A stretch of 64,000 nt of DNA from positions 1-64,000 of the IMG/VR virus record IMGVR_UViG_3300032238_000977; one strand, 5' to 3'. How positions within the stretch are numbered: position 1 is the first letter of the stretch; every line of letters begins with the position of its first letter. Under the pieces are notes generated by a model. It worked only from the letters and a program-made list of their open reading frames with translations. It made no database searches and was not told the DNA's origin. Of this stretch, positions 23,626 to 32,756 are shown piece after piece. A program made the position numbers and the translations under genes. This DNA is from a virus.

Positions 23626-24675
23626 TTATTTTGAATTTTTAATTTGATCAGAAATCCAAGTATAAGTCTTGCGAATTCCTTCTTCTAATGTTTGTTGATA
23701 ATCCCAACCCAGTTTTTCTCGGATGAGATCATTATTGGAGTTACGTCCACGAACACCAAGAGGTCCATCAATATGATTTTTCTCTACAGTCTTTGCAGAT
23801 ACTTTAGCAGCAGTATCAACCAATTGATTGATAGTAACCATTTCCTCAGATCCAATATTCACTGGTCCAATGAAGTCGGAATCCATCATTCTGCGTGTTG
23901 CTTCGATGCATTCATCAATATACAGGAAGGAACGAGTTTGTAGGCCATCTCCCCACACTTCTATGGTTCCACCTTCCTCTGGAAGGTAGGCAACTTTACG
24001 ACAGATTGCTGCTGGTGCCTTCTCTCTTCCACCTTCCCACGTCCCTTCAGGACCGAAGATATTGTGGTAACGAGCAACACGCACGGGAATATTGTAGTTA
24101 CGGTTATAAGCGAAATAAAGACGCTCACTAAAAAGTTTCTCCCAACCATATTCGGAATCTGGGTTTGCTGGATATGCGGATTCTTCACGACAGTCGGGAT
24201 TATCGGGATCAAGTTGATTATGTTCTGGATACATACACGCAGATCCAGAATAGAAAATCTTAGTCTTATTAATTCCAGTCCTCTCATTCATTTTATGTTG
24301 CTCTTCAAGAACATTCAGATTGATAGAAACTGAATTATGCATGATGTCTGCATCGTTCTCACCAGTGAAAACAAATCCAGCACCGCCCATATCAGCAGCA
24401 AACTGATAGATCTCATCAAATGTTTGAATATAACGATAAGGAACTGAATTATAGAAGTTTCCTTGGTCGCCTTTAAATTCAAGAACACGACGAACAAAAT
24501 CTACGTCTCTAAGATCTCCCTGAATAAATTCATGCGCTTCAGTGGGAGAATACTCAGGTCTCTTAAGGTCTACACCACGTACCCAATATCCTTCGGAACG
24601 TAGTCTTTTAACCATATGACTTCCGATAAAGCCACCCGCACCAAGAACAAGTGCAGTCTTAGTATATTGACTCAT
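23626..24675 (-). CDS. GDP-mannose 3,5-epimerase-like SDR
   Basis: GAGGFIG, AADMGGAGF, SACMYP, YGWEKL, EKAPAAICRK, GVRGRNS: GME signatures. Confidence 0.85.
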   Translation of the reverse strand: MSQYTKTALVLGAGGFIGSHMVKRLRSEGYWVRGVDLKRPEYSPTEAHEFIQGDLRDVDFVRRVLEFKGDQGNFYNSVPYRYIQTFDEIYQFAADMGGAGFVFTGENDADIMHNSVSINLNVLEEQHKMNERTGINKTKIFYSGSACMYPEHNQLDPDNPDCREESAYPANPDSEYGWEKLFSERLYFAYNRNYNIPVRVARYHNIFGPEGTWEGGREKAPAAICRKVAYLPEEGGTIEVWGDGLQTRSFLYIDECIEATRRMMDSDFIGPVNIGSEEMVTINQLVDTAAKVSAKTVEKNHIDGPLGVRGRNSNNDLIREKLGWDYQQTLEEGIRKTYTWISDQIKNSK

Positions 24676-24751: not shown

Positions 24752-24941
24752 TTTCAGGCTCGCCACCAATTCTTTAACTGGAAATTGGAAACCAGGCGGG
24801 GAGAGTATCCCATCCGCACCACCAGTTTTTTAAAGAAACTGGAAACTTTTAAGAGGGTCATATGACTCCACCAGTACTTTTAAAGTCTCTCCGTGACTTC
24901 GAGGGGGTCCCGACCAGTACTTTTTAAGTCTCTCCGTGACT
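24752..24941 (-). ncRNA. Tandem-pseudoknot RNA of the cyanophage wcaG/manA motif type
   Basis: Four units each ending in UGGY(G/C); GGUGCGGAUGGG..CCCGCC and UGGCGAGCC segments; lies upstream of a nucleotide-sugar epimerase. Confidence 0.7.
24870..24941. repeat. 29-bp direct repeat, two copies
   Basis: ACCAGTACTTTTWAAGTCTCTCCGTGACT at 24870-24898 and 24913-24941, 28/29 identical. Confidence 0.95.
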
Positions 24942-25548: not shown

Positions 25549-25577
25549 ATTCGCTATTCGCAAATAGCGAATAGCAA

Positions 25578-25665
25578 TACGAGTGGGTGGATTCGAACCA
25601 CCTCAAAGCCGCTAATCTGGCGGAAAGAGTTTATAAGACTCCTCTGACTACCAAGTCTCACTCGC
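25578..25665 (-). tRNA. Non-canonical tRNA-Ile(UAU) with long variable arm
   Basis: GCGAGTG/CACTCGT acceptor, GGAGT-CT-TAT-AA-ACTCT, GGTGG-TTCGAAT-CCACC. Confidence 0.8.
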
Positions 25666-25713
25666 ACGAAAGTTGCCTTGAGGCAACTTATAAGACCTAT
25701 ATGTGGTCTTAAA

Positions 25714-28060: not shown

Positions 28061-28495
28061 TCACTGTAAATGAGATCTTAACATCCAAACAAACTTACCA
28101 TGGGATTCCATTAAATCCTGAACCAGATTAGCAGTTGCATATTGCTTTTGATCTTCCGATTCTTCCGAAATCTCTTTCATTAATTCACAAAACTTTTCGT
28201 TATTCTCAAGAAGTTCTTGAAGAATTTCTTTTGCTCCTGTTGAACTAGCCGCTTCTTTAATTTGCGTCACTTCAAGCATTCTTGAAAGAGAACTCAATGG
28301 TTTTACGTTTAAGTATCTCATATGCTCAGAAAGACGATCAATCTCTTCAAACATAGTTTCATACTGTCCACCAAAAAGTTGATGTAGTTGAGTGAAATCT
28401 GATCCAACTACATTCCAGTGAAATGCCCAAGTTTTATGAAATAAGACAAAAAGTGATGACTGAGCATCACTCAAGAGTTTATAAAGTTTTTCCAT
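28061..28495 (-). CDS. dps: Dps ferritin-like DNA-protection protein
   Basis: FHWNVVG..F..LH, IDRLSEH, K..WMLRS; late promoter TAAATA at 28517-28512. Confidence 0.92.
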   Translation of the reverse strand: MEKLYKLLSDAQSSLFVLFHKTWAFHWNVVGSDFTQLHQLFGGQYETMFEEIDRLSEHMRYLNVKPLSSLSRMLEVTQIKEAASSTGAKEILQELLENNEKFCELMKEISEESEDQKQYATANLVQDLMESHGKFVWMLRSHLQ

Positions 28496-28523
28496 TATAC
28501 TCTTTTTTGAGTATTTATGCAAG

Positions 28524-28595
28524 TGGGCGATACTGGATTCGAACCAGTGACCATCTCCGTGTAAAGGAGGTGCGCTACCGCTGCGCTAATCGCCC
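28524..28595 (-). tRNA. tRNA-Val(UAC)
   Basis: Cloverleaf, CTCC-TT-TAC-AC-GGAG. Confidence 0.93.
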
Positions 28596-28600
28596 TTAAA

Positions 28601-28663
28601 TGGATGGTAGGTATTCCCACTCGGATGTTAAGAAGGTGATTAACCGTTAACCCCGACCATCCA
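28601..28663 (-). ncRNA. Candidate structured RNA between tRNA-Asn and tRNA-Val
   Basis: 8-bp closing stem TGGATGGT/ACCATCCA with two internal arms. Confidence 0.5.
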
Positions 28664-28664
28664 A

Positions 28665-28736
28665 CTCCCCCGGCAAGATTCGAACTTGCGACCTGGAAAT
28701 TAACAGTTTCTCGCGCTACCGCTGCGCCACAGGGGA
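28665..28736 (-). tRNA. tRNA-Asn(GUU)
   Basis: GAAA-CT-GTT-AA-TTTC, G73. Confidence 0.94.
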
Positions 28737-28740
28737 ATAA

Positions 28741-28810
28741 AGGAAGTTACTGGACTTACACCAGTTACGAGGGCATTGTCTGCTTGTCTTGATTCTTTGA
28801 CTTAACTTCC
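28741..28810 (-). ncRNA. tRNA-like RNA lacking a normal anticodon arm
   Basis: GGAAGTT/AACTTCC acceptor, ACTGG-TGTAAGT-CCAGT T-arm, GTC/GAC D-stem, only a 3-bp/5-nt middle arm. Confidence 0.65.
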
Positions 28811-28812
28811 GC

Positions 28813-28867
28813 GATGGGGCAAGTGTGATATACCTCATAAGGATATAACAGGGACTTACCCTCTATC
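28813..28867 (-). ncRNA. Candidate hairpin RNA
   Basis: GGGTAAGT/ACTTGCCC lower stem, CCCT bulge, upper stem capped by CCT-TATG-AGG. Confidence 0.45.
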
Positions 28868-28894
28868 ATTTTATATATGGAGATAAACTCCAAG

Positions 28895-28968
28895 CGTCTT
28901 GGGAGGGACTCGAACCCCCGACCAACTCATTAGAAGTGAGATGCTCTATCCAACTGAGCTACCAAGAC
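28895..28968 (-). tRNA. tRNA-Arg(UCU)
   Basis: CTCA-CT-TCT-AA-TGAG, A20 in the D-loop. Confidence 0.94.
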
Positions 28969-28972
28969 ATAA

Positions 28973-29040
28973 GTAGGTTCCTATCGCCGCCACTCCTGAA
29001 CCTACCGAAGGAGAGTGTCGCAGTTGATTTCTCAACTCTG
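28973..29040 (-). ncRNA. Hairpin plus H-type pseudoknot leader
   Basis: AGTTGA-GAAA-TCAACT; CACTCT/GGAGTG crossed by GTAGGTTC/GAACCTAC. Confidence 0.55.
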
Positions 29041-29042
29041 AT

Positions 29043-29071
29043 ATTATACCAGTCCTTATGAAACTGGTCAA
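29043..29071 (-). promoter_or_regulatory. Sigma70 promoter inside the tRNA cluster
   Basis: TTGACC, 17 bp spacer, TATAAT. Confidence 0.8.
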
Positions 29072-29074
29072 GTG

Positions 29075-29154
29075 TGCCGTGTGGTTGTGAATCTAAATCA
29101 AACCTTTTTGATAAGTGCCCCACTGGATCTTATCTAAAGTTTTGAACCACGGCA
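29075..29154 (-). ncRNA. Candidate long irregular hairpin RNA
   Basis: Nested TGCCGT/ACGGCA, GGTT/AACC, CTTT/AAAG and GATAAG/CTTATC stems. Confidence 0.5.
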
Positions 29155-29156
29155 AG

Positions 29157-29230
29157 TGGGAAATCCTGGACTCGAACCAGGCACCTCACGATTATCAGTC
29201 GTGCGCTCTAACCAACTGAGCTAATCTCCC
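29157..29230 (-). tRNA. tRNA-Ile(GAU)
   Basis: CACGA-CT-GAT-AA-TCGTG. Confidence 0.96.
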
Positions 29231-29233
29231 ACA

Positions 29234-29322
29234 CGGAGGATGTTGGATTTGAACCAACGGAGACCCGTAAAGATCTCAAGAACTTAGCAGGTTCCCGCTT
29301 TAAGCCACTCAGCCAATCCTCC
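29234..29322 (-). tRNA. tRNA-Ser(GCU)
   Basis: GGAAC-CT-GCT-AA-GTTCT, long variable arm, G73. Confidence 0.95.
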
Positions 29323-29324
29323 AA

Positions 29325-29397
29325 TGGGTCAAGTGAGACTCGAACTCACGACTTACAGGTTAAAAGCCCGCTACTCTACCAACTGAGTTATTGACCC
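29325..29397 (-). tRNA. tRNA-Lys(UUU)
   Basis: GCGGG-CT-TTT-AA-CCTGT. Confidence 0.95.
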
Positions 29398-29401
29398 AAA
29401 G

Positions 29402-29483
29402 TGGGCAGGGAGGGATTTGAACCCCCGTAGGCAGAGCCAGCGGATTTACAGTCCGCCTCCATTAACCACTCGGACACCTACCC
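29402..29483 (-). tRNA. tRNA-Tyr(GUA)
   Basis: GCGGA-CT-GTA-AA-TCCGC, type II variable arm. Confidence 0.95.
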
Positions 29484-29492
29484 ATAAAACTT

Positions 29493-29550
29493 AAAGGCAG
29501 GTGCGGTATCTCCTTTCGGTGCCCATGCTCCTTTTACTTTCCTTGCCTTC
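29493..29550 (-). ncRNA. Candidate structured leader of the tRNA operon
   Basis: AAGGCA/TGCCTT closing stem, purine-rich internal loop, GAAA-capped hairpin. Confidence 0.45.
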
Positions 29551-29559
29551 AATGAGTTT

Positions 29560-29588
29560 ATTGTATCACTCCTTAGGGCAGTCGTCAA
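29560..29588 (-). promoter_or_regulatory. Sigma70 promoter of the tRNA operon
   Basis: TTGACG, 17 bp spacer, TACAAT. Confidence 0.75.
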
Positions 29589-29779
29589 CCTGCTGTTGCT
29601 TCCTTACGAGCAGTCTTTTCAGCGGTGATTTCGTTACGACGAACTTTTACAAGTTTGGAAATTTCTTGAAGTGCTTTACGAGCACGAGTTCCTGCAGATC
29701 CATTACCTGCGACGAACTTTTCATCTTCAACTTGCCAAGCTGCAACTGCATCTGTGAGTTGTTGTACTGTTTCCGACAT
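29585..29779 (-). CDS. Histone H1-like protein (Hc1 family)
   Basis: GNGSAGTRARKALQEISKL..R motif; AAGGA RBS. Confidence 0.75.
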   Translation of the reverse strand: MSETVQQLTDAVAAWQVEDEKFVAGNGSAGTRARKALQEISKLVKVRRNEITAEKTARKEATAG

Positions 29780-29818
29780 AATAATTCCTTTAATATAGGT
29801 ATGTGTTTATATATGTAA

Positions 29819-29844
29819 GAAAGGGGGGGGACAATCTCCCCCCT
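29819..29844 (-). terminator. Terminator hairpin
   Basis: G-run/C-run stem followed by TTT. Confidence 0.6.
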
Positions 29845-30646: not shown

Positions 30647-30847
30647 TTAATCAAAATGGTAATAATCATCAACCTTTTCCAAACTCATAATTTCTAATTG
30701 ATCTTCTGTTTCATCAAGATAAATCCATTCATAAAATTCCTGAGAGATAGCATCCGCATTTCCCCGATTATCAGATGCTGTTTGATGCAACTTTTCAATT
30801 GCCCATTCACGAACATGACCAACAATATCTTCAGTCTGTGTTTCCAT
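30647..30847 (-). CDS. Hypothetical acidic protein
   Basis: METQTEDIVGHVREWAIEK...; the longer ORF call is an overlap extension. Confidence 0.65.
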   Translation of the reverse strand: METQTEDIVGHVREWAIEKLHQTASDNRGNADAISQEFYEWIYLDETEDQLEIMSLEKVDDYYHFD

Positions 30848-31274
30848 AATAATCTTTTCGGAAGTACCTATTGAGGATGTTGCTATTGTAGTACCTCGGG
30901 GTTCCTTCGTCAAGGGATTCTGTAAGGACATTGTTGAAGAAGAGTTGTCGCGTCTCTTCGAAGTTTGTTTTGCCTTTTGTTTTATGTAATGAAATAATAG
31001 TTCTTGTAAAATTCTCTTTACCAAATTTTTCAACATCATTTTTTAGTTCTGGACATGATCCATAATACTTTTTCCAATCAGACTCTGATTTAACTTTTCT
31101 AGATTTTCCCTTCGGTGTGCGGAAAGACCAGAAATATTTTCTACCAATATAGTCCCTACCAGTTGCAGTGCAATGAATATGGTAAACAAAACCAAAATAA
31201 TCTTGAATATCACATGAACGAAACACTTCTCCATCATACGTCCAAGGGTTTTCATAGTCAATATCTATATTCAT
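30831..31274 (-). CDS. GIY-YIG endonuclease (T4 endonuclease II/DenA-like)
   Basis: FGFVY...YIGRK, YYGS, YYNSNI. Confidence 0.8.
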   Translation of the reverse strand: MNIDIDYENPWTYDGEVFRSCDIQDYFGFVYHIHCTATGRDYIGRKYFWSFRTPKGKSRKVKSESDWKKYYGSCPELKNDVEKFGKENFTRTIISLHKTKGKTNFEETRQLFFNNVLTESLDEGTPRYYNSNILNRYFRKDYYGNTD

Positions 31275-31447: not shown

Positions 31448-31609
31448 CTATACAACATCATTATGTTTTTTTCCTAGCCATTCGGTTTCATAATCATAAT
31501 CACCAAACATAAACTCATCCAACTCTGCAGCATCTTTATATGCATTTAGGATTTCTTGTTCACACCACTCATCATAATTTGAATCCTGAGAAAGTATTTT
31601 TGGTAACAT
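31448..31609 (-). CDS. Hypothetical acidic protein, 53 aa, overlapping the nrdB 3' end
   Basis: MLPKILSQDSNYDEWCEQEILNAYKDAAELDEFMFGDYDY... Confidence 0.5.
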   Translation of the reverse strand: MLPKILSQDSNYDEWCEQEILNAYKDAAELDEFMFGDYDYETEWLGKKHNDVV

Positions 31610-32756
31610 CTTGTTTGATTCCACCAACGACGTATGATTCTACCTCAGTTTCCTGCGGAGCAACCTGAAGACCTTTAGAAGAGATCCAGTGCTGAGTCCA
31701 AGGTAACGGATTATTATTTGCTGAGATATCGTACTGTGGTTTCAGTCCTATTCCTTTTAGTCTGCGGTTTGCAATCCATTCAACATATTGTTGTAACAAT
31801 TTGTCGTTAAGTCCAATCATACTACCGTCTTTGAACAAATAATCTGCCCATTTCTTTTCTTCATTCACTGCACGATCAAACATTTTATAAACCCACTCTT
31901 CTTCTTCTTTAGCAATTTGCTTCATCTCTGGATCATCCCCATCACGCCACTTATTCAAAATATTTTGAGTAATTGCTAAGTGTTGGTTTTCGTCTCTTGC
32001 AATGAGAGAGATGATCTTAGCTGATCCTTCCATAAGCTTAAGTTCACCAAAGGCGAAAGAGCAAGCAAAACTAACGTAGAACCGAATACCTTCAAGAATG
32101 TTAACGTTTGCAACTGCTCTGTAGAGTTTTCGTTTAACGTCATTGAGTGTTTCCTTTGTGTTTGGGACTCCTTCAAGACTATACATCCATTCATTGGATG
32201 TACCATAATTTTGGGCTGATTGAATAAAGTCATCATACGACTCAGTTACGCTTCTAGCACGTTCTAGAATACGCTCGTCGGTAATGATAGTATCAAACAC
32301 CTCACTTGGGTCTGAATAGACGTTTTTAATAATATAAGTGTACGAACGTGAGTGAATCATTTCCATAAATCCCCACACTTCCATACATGCCTCTAATTCA
32401 GGTAGAGAGCAATAGGGAATAAAGGCCATACCAGGACCACGACCCTGAATAGAATCAAGCATAATCTGATACTTCAAATTGGAAGTGTAGATGTGCTTTT
32501 GTTCTGGACGAAGTGTTTGATAATCTCCACGATCCTTCTGGAGAGATACCTCTTCAGGTCTCCAGAAGTAACCAAGTTGTTGAGTTGTTAGTTTGTCGAA
32601 GACTGGATATTTGTACGAATCGTATCTTTGAACTCCAAGAGGTTTTCCAAAAAACATTGGTTGCTTTTTGGTATCAACTTTTTCAGTATTAAAAACCGTC
32701 ATTCCTTTGACTCGGGATTCTTCCGTTGAAGAAATTTTAAACTGCACAGGATTCAC
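31572..32756 (-). CDS. nrdB: Ribonucleotide reductase class Ia beta subunit
   Basis: FWRPEEV, EMIHSRSY, EGIRFY, DENQH, APQETE. Confidence 0.98.
   Translation of the reverse strand: MNPVQFKISSTEESRVKGMTVFNTEKVDTKKQPMFFGKPLGVQRYDSYKYPVFDKLTTQQLGYFWRPEEVSLQKDRGDYQTLRPEQKHIYTSNLKYQIMLDSIQGRGPGMAFIPYCSLPELEACMEVWGFMEMIHSRSYTYIIKNVYSDPSEVFDTIITDERILERARSVTESYDDFIQSAQNYGTSNEWMYSLEGVPNTKETLNDVKRKLYRAVANVNILEGIRFYVSFACSFAFGELKLMEGSAKIISLIARDENQHLAITQNILNKWRDGDDPEMKQIAKEEEEWVYKMFDRAVNEEKKWADYLFKDGSMIGLNDKLLQQYVEWIANRRLKGIGLKPQYDISANNNPLPWTQHWISSKGLQVAPQETEVESYVVGGIKQDVTKNTFSGFKL

Follow-up and report, generated by a model that had tools for sequence, protein, structure and literature searches.

What fills the gaps between the tRNA genes of a phage tRNA operon, and is it more than spacer? 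The question is raised by a stretch of 64,000 nucleotides (nt), positions 1 to 64,000 of the IMG/VR virus record IMGVR_UViG_3300032238_000977, which we call the window; the record itself is a 78-kb contig estimated to hold about 38% of a genome. ARAGORN and Rfam, in agreement with each other, call seven tRNA genes on the minus strand between 28523 and 29483 (Val, Asn, Arg, Ile, Ser, Lys, and Tyr), none of which encodes CCA. An earlier note, made from the letters alone, had described this block as a tRNA operon interleaved with six small structured RNAs, which occupy the gaps at 28596-28663, 28738-28893, 28969-29155, and 29484-29559 and are referred to here as modules A, B1, B2, C1, C2, and D (Table 1). 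Judged from its wcaG RNA, the BLAST matches of the tRNA block, and the neighboring genes, the virus is a T4-like cyanomyovirus. The matches of the tRNA block are mostly Synechococcus phages, and DNA sequencing runs with similar sequence point to freshwater and other metagenomes.

Six conserved RNA folds between the tRNA genes

To collect homologues, IMG/VR was scanned with short degenerate patterns derived from the first BLAST matches in cultured cyanophages. The scan returned 74 loci for C1 (about 66 of them true copies), at least 119 each for C2 and B2, 86 for D, 56 for B1, and 1 for A, and a metagenome scan added 10 contigs with module A. A BLASTN search of GenBank phages with A, B1, and D turned up no homologue in a cyanophage, and cyanophage-type copies of these three occur only in IMG/VR or metagenome contigs. 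Cultured carriers are known for the other three: S-SRM01, S-CREM1, S-RIM8, and S-SZBM1 for B2, S-RIM32 and DSL-LC03 for C1, and S-SKS1 and P-SSM2 for C2. Each module is present once in the 78-kb contig, and all six recur in other viral or metagenome contigs, again once per contig. The intervals proposed at the outset agree to within 1-5 nt with the units that the homologues conserve independently. More than four module types in a single locus were seen only in this window among the approximately 460 loci examined.

Folding of the single sequences against shuffles was only moderately better for the native order (z = -2.1, -2.1, -2.7, -1.4, -3.1, and -0.7 for the six intervals). Because folding energies alone would not convince, it is the comparative evidence that decides whether the modules are real. 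As controls for covariation we slid the partner columns by 1-3 positions and, for B2 and C1, generated 500 shuffles. The check across related phages that the earlier note had called for was passed: all six modules are conserved, and five of them (C2, B2, C1, D, and A) contain compensatory base changes.

Module C2 opens with a 5'-terminal GAAA hairpin (29036-29023) and continues as an H-type pseudoknot in which S1 joins 29017-29012 to 28996-28991 and S2 joins 29005-28998 to 28980-28973, with CCUU.. and GCGGCGAUAG as invariant linkers. Across 109 unique sequences, 99.8% of 1526 cells are paired and 9 of the 14 pairs have changed on both sides, compared with 18-50% pairing in the slid controls. 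In module B2 an outer stem of 8 bp leads through an internal loop to an inner hairpin, the loop of which varies. Its 42 unique cores are paired at 99.7%, with 76 G.U cells and four pairs changed on both sides, and in the outer stem one pair is represented by five pair types and two others by three each. Module C1 is built from three helices: a closing stem of 6 bp, a long-range stem, and a hairpin, also of 6 bp, that bears an invariant 13-nt loop, AUCCAGUGGGGCA; pairing stands at 97.1% in 36 unique sequences, with 10 of 19 pairs changed on both sides and slid controls at no more than 39%. For B2 and C1 the observed pairing was reached by none of the 500 shuffles, and slid controls stayed at or below 56%.

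In module D a closing helix, H1, is followed by a 12-nt purine-rich strand and a helix, H2, with an invariant A.A mismatch, H1 and H2 being coaxial. A variable hairpin ranges from 11 to 46 nt across copies and is a short GAAA hairpin in the window. Both helices covary, and switches from C:G to A:U and from A:U to C:G extend to copies beyond the cyanophages, which we found in Ralstonia phage RSP15 (L447:590-680, after tRNA-Leu), Cobetia phage Carin-5 (L448:590-690, behind a TATAAT box), and Vibrio phage 1.121.O (L449:590-690). Module A is closed by a stem of 6-7 bp and contains a long hairpin and a second one, of 5 bp, that stacks on the 3' strand of this stem; in the closing stem an A-U pair has changed to G-C with a G.U intermediate. 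Its homologues (1 in IMG/VR and 10 in metagenome contigs) all lie directly after tRNA-Asn and have four different downstream neighbors. In module B1, an acceptor-like stem of 7 bp is combined with a D-like arm of 3 bp, an anticodon arm that has collapsed to GCA-GACAA-UGC, and a T-like arm of 5 bp with the loop UGUAAGU. Its sequence hardly varies over 56 loci, in contrast to its flanks, and the one divergent copy, L402, keeps the acceptor-like stem through several changes.

Since many of the pairs are G.U, the folds exist only on the tRNA-sense strand, and the modules are RNA-level rather than DNA-level features. Small open reading frames (ORFs) of 36-54 amino acids (aa) do overlap the gaps. 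They are not credible, as had been supposed, because the loops and the variable hairpin of D differ in length by non-multiples of three. No Rfam 15 family matches any of the six intervals at gathering score in a scan of the whole window, none falls within them at E up to 10 on 28400-29800, and no module match appears at E up to 1 in 15 homologous loci, so that the Rfam check proposed for the novelty of the modules leaves it standing. A sub-threshold YrlA match of 17.5 bits is centered on tRNA-Arg and extends into C2. Taken together, the alignments show the six modules to be, as far as sequence can tell, unrelated and independently folding RNAs, each its own family and under selection for RNA structure.

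Table 1. Features of the tRNA block, in the order of the minus strand
Feature	Position	Strand	Remarks
Promoter P1, TTGACG-17-TACAAT	29560-29588	minus	10/12 consensus matches; identical in relative L077, where the leader behind P1 differs
Module D	29492-29551	minus	starts 1-3 nt from predicted transcript start; ends about 8 nt before tRNA-Tyr
tRNA-Tyr(GTA), tRNA-Lys(TTT), tRNA-Ser(GCT), tRNA-Ile(GAT)	29156-29483	minus	spacing 0-2 nt; ARAGORN/Rfam
Module C1	29075-29153	minus	2-3 nt after tRNA-Ile
Promoter P2, TTGACC-17-TATAAT, upstream TG	29043-29071	minus	11/12 consensus matches
Module C2	28969-29042	minus	ends 4 nt before tRNA-Arg
tRNA-Arg(TCT)	28894-28968	minus	ARAGORN/Rfam
Spacer before B2: hairpin GGAG-UUUAU-CUCC, then AUAUAUAAAAU	28868-28893	minus	same segment precedes B2 in many loci
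Module B2	28813-28867	minus	ends in CCAUC
Module B1	28741-28810	minus	tRNA-shaped RNA upstream of tRNA-Asn
tRNA-Asn(GTT)	28664-28737	minus	ARAGORN/Rfam
Module A	28598-28663	minus	trailer of tRNA-Asn, 2-3 nt past tRNA 3' end
tRNA-Val(TAC)	28523-28595	minus	followed by Dps/ferritin-like gene (28061-28498)

Exchange of modules between orthologous slots

The modules keep a strict orientation. In tRNA-bearing loci, all 445 of the 445 module copies scored (C1, C2, B2, D, and three neighboring motifs) are co-oriented with the tRNAs, among them 143 copies of B2, 100 of C2, 72 of C1, and 58 of D. Adjacency was scored only for copies far enough from the end of a locus. Of 68 copies of C1, 54 lie directly 3' of a tRNA; what follows C1 is a promoter in 37 of the 68 and a tRNA in 27. 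C2 lies directly 5' of a tRNA in 82 of 129 copies and behind a promoter in 76 of 129. The corresponding figures for B2 are 85 of 137 and 45 of 137, and B1 directly precedes tRNA-Asn in 21 of 35 contexts. Separate tallies of unique contexts place C2 (n = 115) before tRNA-Arg(TCT) in 53 cases and before tRNA-Pro(TGG) in 13, and B2 upstream of tRNAs of nine anticodon types. Overall, tRNA ends fall within a few nt of the modules in 60-80% of copies; roughly one-third to two-fifths of the C2, B2, and D copies stand instead before ORFs, other modules, or a second promoter.

The two sigma70-type promoters of the block, previously described as perfect, are both present and conserved in homologues, but each is only near consensus. 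Promoter-like sites in the surrounding 2 kb are not in excess (5 versus 3.6 +/- 2.0 in shuffles), and the pattern TTGAC-N-TAnnnT was found upstream of 86 of 124 C2 copies. TTGCAT-17-TATAAT, a third candidate ahead of the dps-like gene, was discarded because it has a poor -35 box and a -10 box that runs into the likely ATG, and because it is missing from the output of the promoter scan.

What stands between a promoter and a tRNA can differ while both flanks stay the same. The window and locus L077 have an identical P1 and an identical tRNA-Tyr, and between them lies D in the window and an abiF RNA in L077 (44.8 bits versus a gathering score of 37). The promoter pair that flanks C2 in S-SKS1 and in locus L088 is identical in sequence to the pair that flanks D in locus L319. 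In S-SRM01 the order is abiF, tRNA-Arg, hairpin plus B2, and tRNA-Asn, compared with C2, tRNA-Arg, hairpin plus B2, B1, and tRNA-Asn in the window. On the evidence of these alignments, the modules are shown to be interchangeable single-copy cassettes that are swapped between orthologous slots, which is the new point made here.

The abiF RNA is a frequent occupant of these slots. All 16 relatives tested have it above gathering score, always 4-7 nt ahead of a tRNA, and at orthologous slots it scores 37.5-55.7 bits. Of its 63 unique contexts, 45 are before tRNA-Arg(TCT), which is also the preferred downstream tRNA of C2; C2 and abiF are seldom in one locus (3 loci), compared with 64 loci that hold both B2 and abiF. 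In 44 of 49 abiF loci no ORF of at least 40 aa starts within 90 nt downstream. We also note that the motif (L002:1384-1420, L004:1560-1596, L077:944-980, and 14 other loci) is a common tRNA leader in cyanomyovirus contigs. In Clostridioides difficile it is an RNA antitoxin that neutralizes the AbiF toxin by direct binding (bioRxiv 10.1101/2025.04.15.648962), and it has been reported once before in a cyanophage, S-CREM1, without an assigned function (PMC9964418). The antitoxin activity is thus that shown in Clostridioides difficile and not that of a phage-borne copy, for which a role as an antitoxin mimic is possible. None of the six modules resembles abiF, although in related cyanophages it fills the same promoter-to-tRNA slots as D and C2.

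Possible roles of the modules

We propose that the block would be read as two back-to-back early transcription units in an uncultured, freshwater-type T4-like cyanomyovirus. The first would run from P1 through D and tRNA-Tyr-Lys-Ser-Ile to C1, and the second from P2 through C2, tRNA-Arg, B2, B1, tRNA-Asn, A, and tRNA-Val to the dps-like gene. On established tRNA biology, two host enzymes would release D, C2, B2 joined to B1, C1, and A as small RNAs: RNase Z by cutting behind the discriminator base of the tRNA that precedes a module, and RNase P by cutting where the following tRNA begins. The anatomy fits this part of the earlier account, since 60-80% of the copies abut tRNA ends and always on the tRNA strand; the release itself is what we infer from it. 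Once free, each RNA would then act in trans on a protein or RNA partner of its own.

The modules look like cargo rather than generic spacers, because their loops and linkers are invariant, they are single copy, and all are co-oriented with the tRNAs. With the invariance of the loops, the single copy, and the sharing of slots with abiF as its basis, trans action on specific partners, possibly host defense proteins, has in our estimation about an even chance of being correct. The most specific guess, drawn by analogy from the abiF RNAs in the same slots of relatives, is that some modules are decoys or antidotes for host RNA-binding defense proteins, which is plausible. Of the two kinds of decoy suggested in the earlier note, those for anticodon nucleases find no support, as none of the modules has an anticodon loop; those for defense proteins gain, indirectly, from the orthologous slots that C2 and D share with the abiF antitoxin motif in relatives, but no abiF is present in this contig.

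A hint that the modules are expressed, and a weak one, comes from relatives. Contigs from the RNA libraries of four studies cover tRNAs, B1 joined to tRNA-Asn, B2, C1, and D, and one such contig of 71 nt is exactly B2. A and C2 are uncovered at 88% likeness or higher, which proves nothing.

Several observations weigh against excision and action in trans, as decoys or otherwise. The abiF RNA (RF03085, at least 37 bits) is absent from the window and from the 78-kb contig, and the contig likewise contains no Abi_2 gene; because of this, the argument for decoys is one from position. RNA-library contigs cannot give RNA ends, strand, or level, and may include DNA. Because one-third to two-fifths of the C2, B2, and D copies have no adjacent tRNA, tRNA processing cannot by itself make the ends of the modules. 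A strict pattern for D, run on one genome per species for 185,579 species, gave only 5 matches, all of them in contigs of metagenome-assembled genomes and 2 with tRNA arrays, so that no host-encoded RNA for D to mimic was detected. Finally, the layout also fits a role in cis: each of the two transcripts opens with a module (D in one, C2 in the other), and the first unit closes with C1.

That role would make the modules fixtures of the transcript: terminal structures that shield pre-tRNAs or early transcripts from RNase E/J and 3' exonucleases, or that keep tRNAs from misfolding, and that have no function once cut off. We regard this, the main rival, as possible, though doubtful. 5'-terminal stem-loops stabilize bacterial RNAs, D and C2 start 1-3 nt from the predicted transcript starts, and promoters precede C2 and B2 and follow C1 in the proportions given above. 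The filling of one slot by different modules is also what would be expected if any stable fold sufficed. A generic shield, however, needs no invariant 10-13-nt loops and linkers kept across distant phages, and it would be expected at every transcript end, whereas the modules occur once per contig. Three modules (B2, B1, and A) lie inside the second transcript rather than at an end, the leader would be stripped by RNase P from the very tRNA it is supposed to protect, and abiF, which takes turns with D and C2 in their slots, has a known protein partner on which it acts in trans.

A bolder version of trans action by the modules, and one we consider unlikely, is that the tRNA operons of cyanomyoviruses serve as an expression-and-processing chassis for interchangeable anti-defense RNAs. 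These would sit in promoter-to-tRNA and tRNA-to-tRNA slots and neutralize host toxins that bind RNA; of them abiF would be the first recognizable one and the six modules new antidotes or decoys; the adjacent tRNA, often tRNA-Arg(UCU), might then replace a tRNA destroyed by a toxin.

It is quite improbable that the modules are decayed tRNA genes or selfish recombination cassettes that hitch-hike without a function of their own. In favor of this are the tRNA-like shape of B1 and A, the mobility of the modules between contexts, and the presence of GIY-YIG homing endonuclease genes nearby, both in the window and in T4. The tRNA model RF00005 is nonetheless silent on B1 and A, and ARAGORN at default, -ps80, and mitochondrial settings calls neither on the minus strand; relaxed runs (-ps, -ps80, mitochondrial) gave only spurious plus-strand candidates. 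B1 departs from a tRNA in having a 5-nt GACAA loop, compared with a 7-nt anticodon loop, and a non-canonical UGUAAGU T-loop, and four of the six modules have no cloverleaf at all. The compensatory changes preserve folds that are not those of tRNAs, and the near-invariance of B1 between varying flanks also speaks against decay.

Self-cleavage is extremely unlikely for any of the modules. HDV-like (hepatitis delta virus-like) theta ribozymes sit at the 3' ends of gut-phage tRNAs and have been proposed to act in tRNA maturation (PMC10879173). Their position, within 5 nt of a tRNA 3' end, is shared by C1 (tRNA-Ile) and A (tRNA-Asn), both 2-3 nt off, and C2 is a compact pseudoknot with invariant linkers, so one or more modules might be imagined to make tRNA ends in the same way. 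C1 and A are, however, without an HDV-like fold: no Rfam HDV-type model matches, the C1 helices do not form a nested double pseudoknot (P1, P1.1, P2, and P3) with a catalytic C in J4/2, and by inspection the 5' end of C1 pairs with its extreme 3' end, which makes the HDV-like order of P1 and P2 impossible. The ribozyme families of Rfam 15 gave no match in the window up to E = 10 and none in 15 relatives up to E = 1, and host RNase P and RNase Z suffice for tRNA processing.

Equally remote is a riboswitch or attenuator in which C2 or D would sense a metabolite or protein and thereby regulate transcription of the tRNAs or genes downstream. Both lie close to a promoter and are conserved in the manner of an aptamer, the D hairpin varies in length, and C2 lies upstream of purM in P-SSM2, but the downstream features (tRNA-Arg, tRNA-Pro, purM, hypothetical genes, and sometimes directly a second promoter) have no common function, no expression platform or terminator follows, and the modules swap with unrelated ones in the same slot.

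Neighboring features and known phage RNAs

Several side observations concern copies of the modules in other loci. In 26 B2 copies (e.g., L205, L295, and L316) the module is followed by another recurrent element, beginning GTAGGAAGTGCAA, which is absent from the window. A candidate hammerhead in B2 was rejected: CUGAUGAG, present in some copies, is the variable loop of the inner hairpin (CCUUAUGAGG, CCUUGAGG, and CCUCGAGG, among others), and none of the hammerhead models gives a match. Behind B1 in L288, L291, L442, and L445 stands a tRNA-Asn(GTT) with an aberrant 5' half (CCCATCGACCGAGCAAGCGAACGGGC...), unlike the canonical tRNA-Asn of the window. In several loci D lies just upstream of a conserved sequence that begins the permuted transfer-messenger RNA (tmRNA), and one viral contig carries a cyanobacterial-type permuted tmRNA (L310:367-622, minus strand; RF01851, 79.4 bits).

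Others concern the surroundings of the block. The -35 box of P1 (ggTTGAcg) contains the stop codon of a 64-aa Hc1 histone-H1-like gene (29585-29779), and in S-SRM01 a gene annotated as histone H1 likewise lies just upstream of the tRNA block. Just upstream of the Hc1-like gene is a terminator-like G6/C7 hairpin with a T-rich tail (29825-29843, minus strand), which would insulate the tRNA units from transcription further upstream. Next to the gene for the ribonucleotide reductase (RNR) small subunit (RNR-beta; 31572-32756) lies one for a GIY-YIG homing endonuclease of SegE type (30831-31274, minus strand); in T4, segB lies inside the tRNA cluster. The wcaG RNA (24752-24850, minus strand, 99.4 bits) is upstream of a GDP-mannose dehydratase/epimerase-like gene (23626-24675), a known arrangement. 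ARAGORN also calls a 90-nt tRNA-Ile(TAT) at 25577-25666 (minus strand) on which the Rfam tRNA model is silent at gathering score; it may be an unusual or intron-bearing tRNA.

The block is not without precedent, and to call it an undescribed system, as the earlier note did, claimed too much. Stable RNAs other than tRNAs were already familiar in a T4-type tRNA cluster from RNAC and RNAD of T4, and a cis role explains part of the layout equally well. T4 transcribes these two stable RNAs of unknown role directly behind tRNA-Arg (PMC3014915; PMC9697503), and in the T4 RefSeq annotation rnaD starts 1 nt after tRNA-Arg. RNAC (species 1) and RNAD (species 2) resemble the modules in being non-tRNA, on the tRNA strand inside the cluster, and abutting a tRNA. 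They have gone unexplained for about 50 years. The T4 RNAs, 119 and 139 nt long, stand at the cluster's end; the six modules, of 55-80 nt, are spread among the tRNAs, two of them promoter-proximal. Accumulation as stable RNA has been shown for the T4 pair, whereas the modules are known from sequence and from RNA-library contigs of relatives. There is no similarity of sequence or profile between the two sets: neither nhmmer profiles of B2, C1, C2, and D nor blastn-short with all six modules against the T4 tRNA region gave a match inside rnaC or rnaD. In kind, then, the modules are the RNAC/RNAD phenomenon, but as families they are new, bear no relation to the T4 RNAs, and number six within 1 kb.

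The modules also differ from the promoter-early stem-loop (PeSL) cassettes of T4-type phages, which Arbiol, Comeau, and Krisch in 2010 reportedly described as an early promoter with a simple stem-loop, located in variable regions, shuffled as units, and repeated many times per genome. Compared with those simple repeats, the modules are complex covarying folds, and the 78-kb contig (about 38% of the genome) contains one copy of each. Some of the present families may be among the 8,495 structured RNAs that a survey of IMG/VR in 2023 put forward as candidates (PMC10690425).

The modules supply several new candidate families for RNA databases. For the biology of cyanophages, they mean that these viruses carry a toolkit of such RNAs, with at least six families here, one of which (D) reaches phages of proteobacteria. 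The swapping of slots with a known RNA antitoxin motif leads to a testable idea, that tRNA operons may be delivery platforms for anti-defense RNAs. If the modules instead act in cis, they would be new elements of RNA stability or processing in abundant viruses of the ocean and of lakes.

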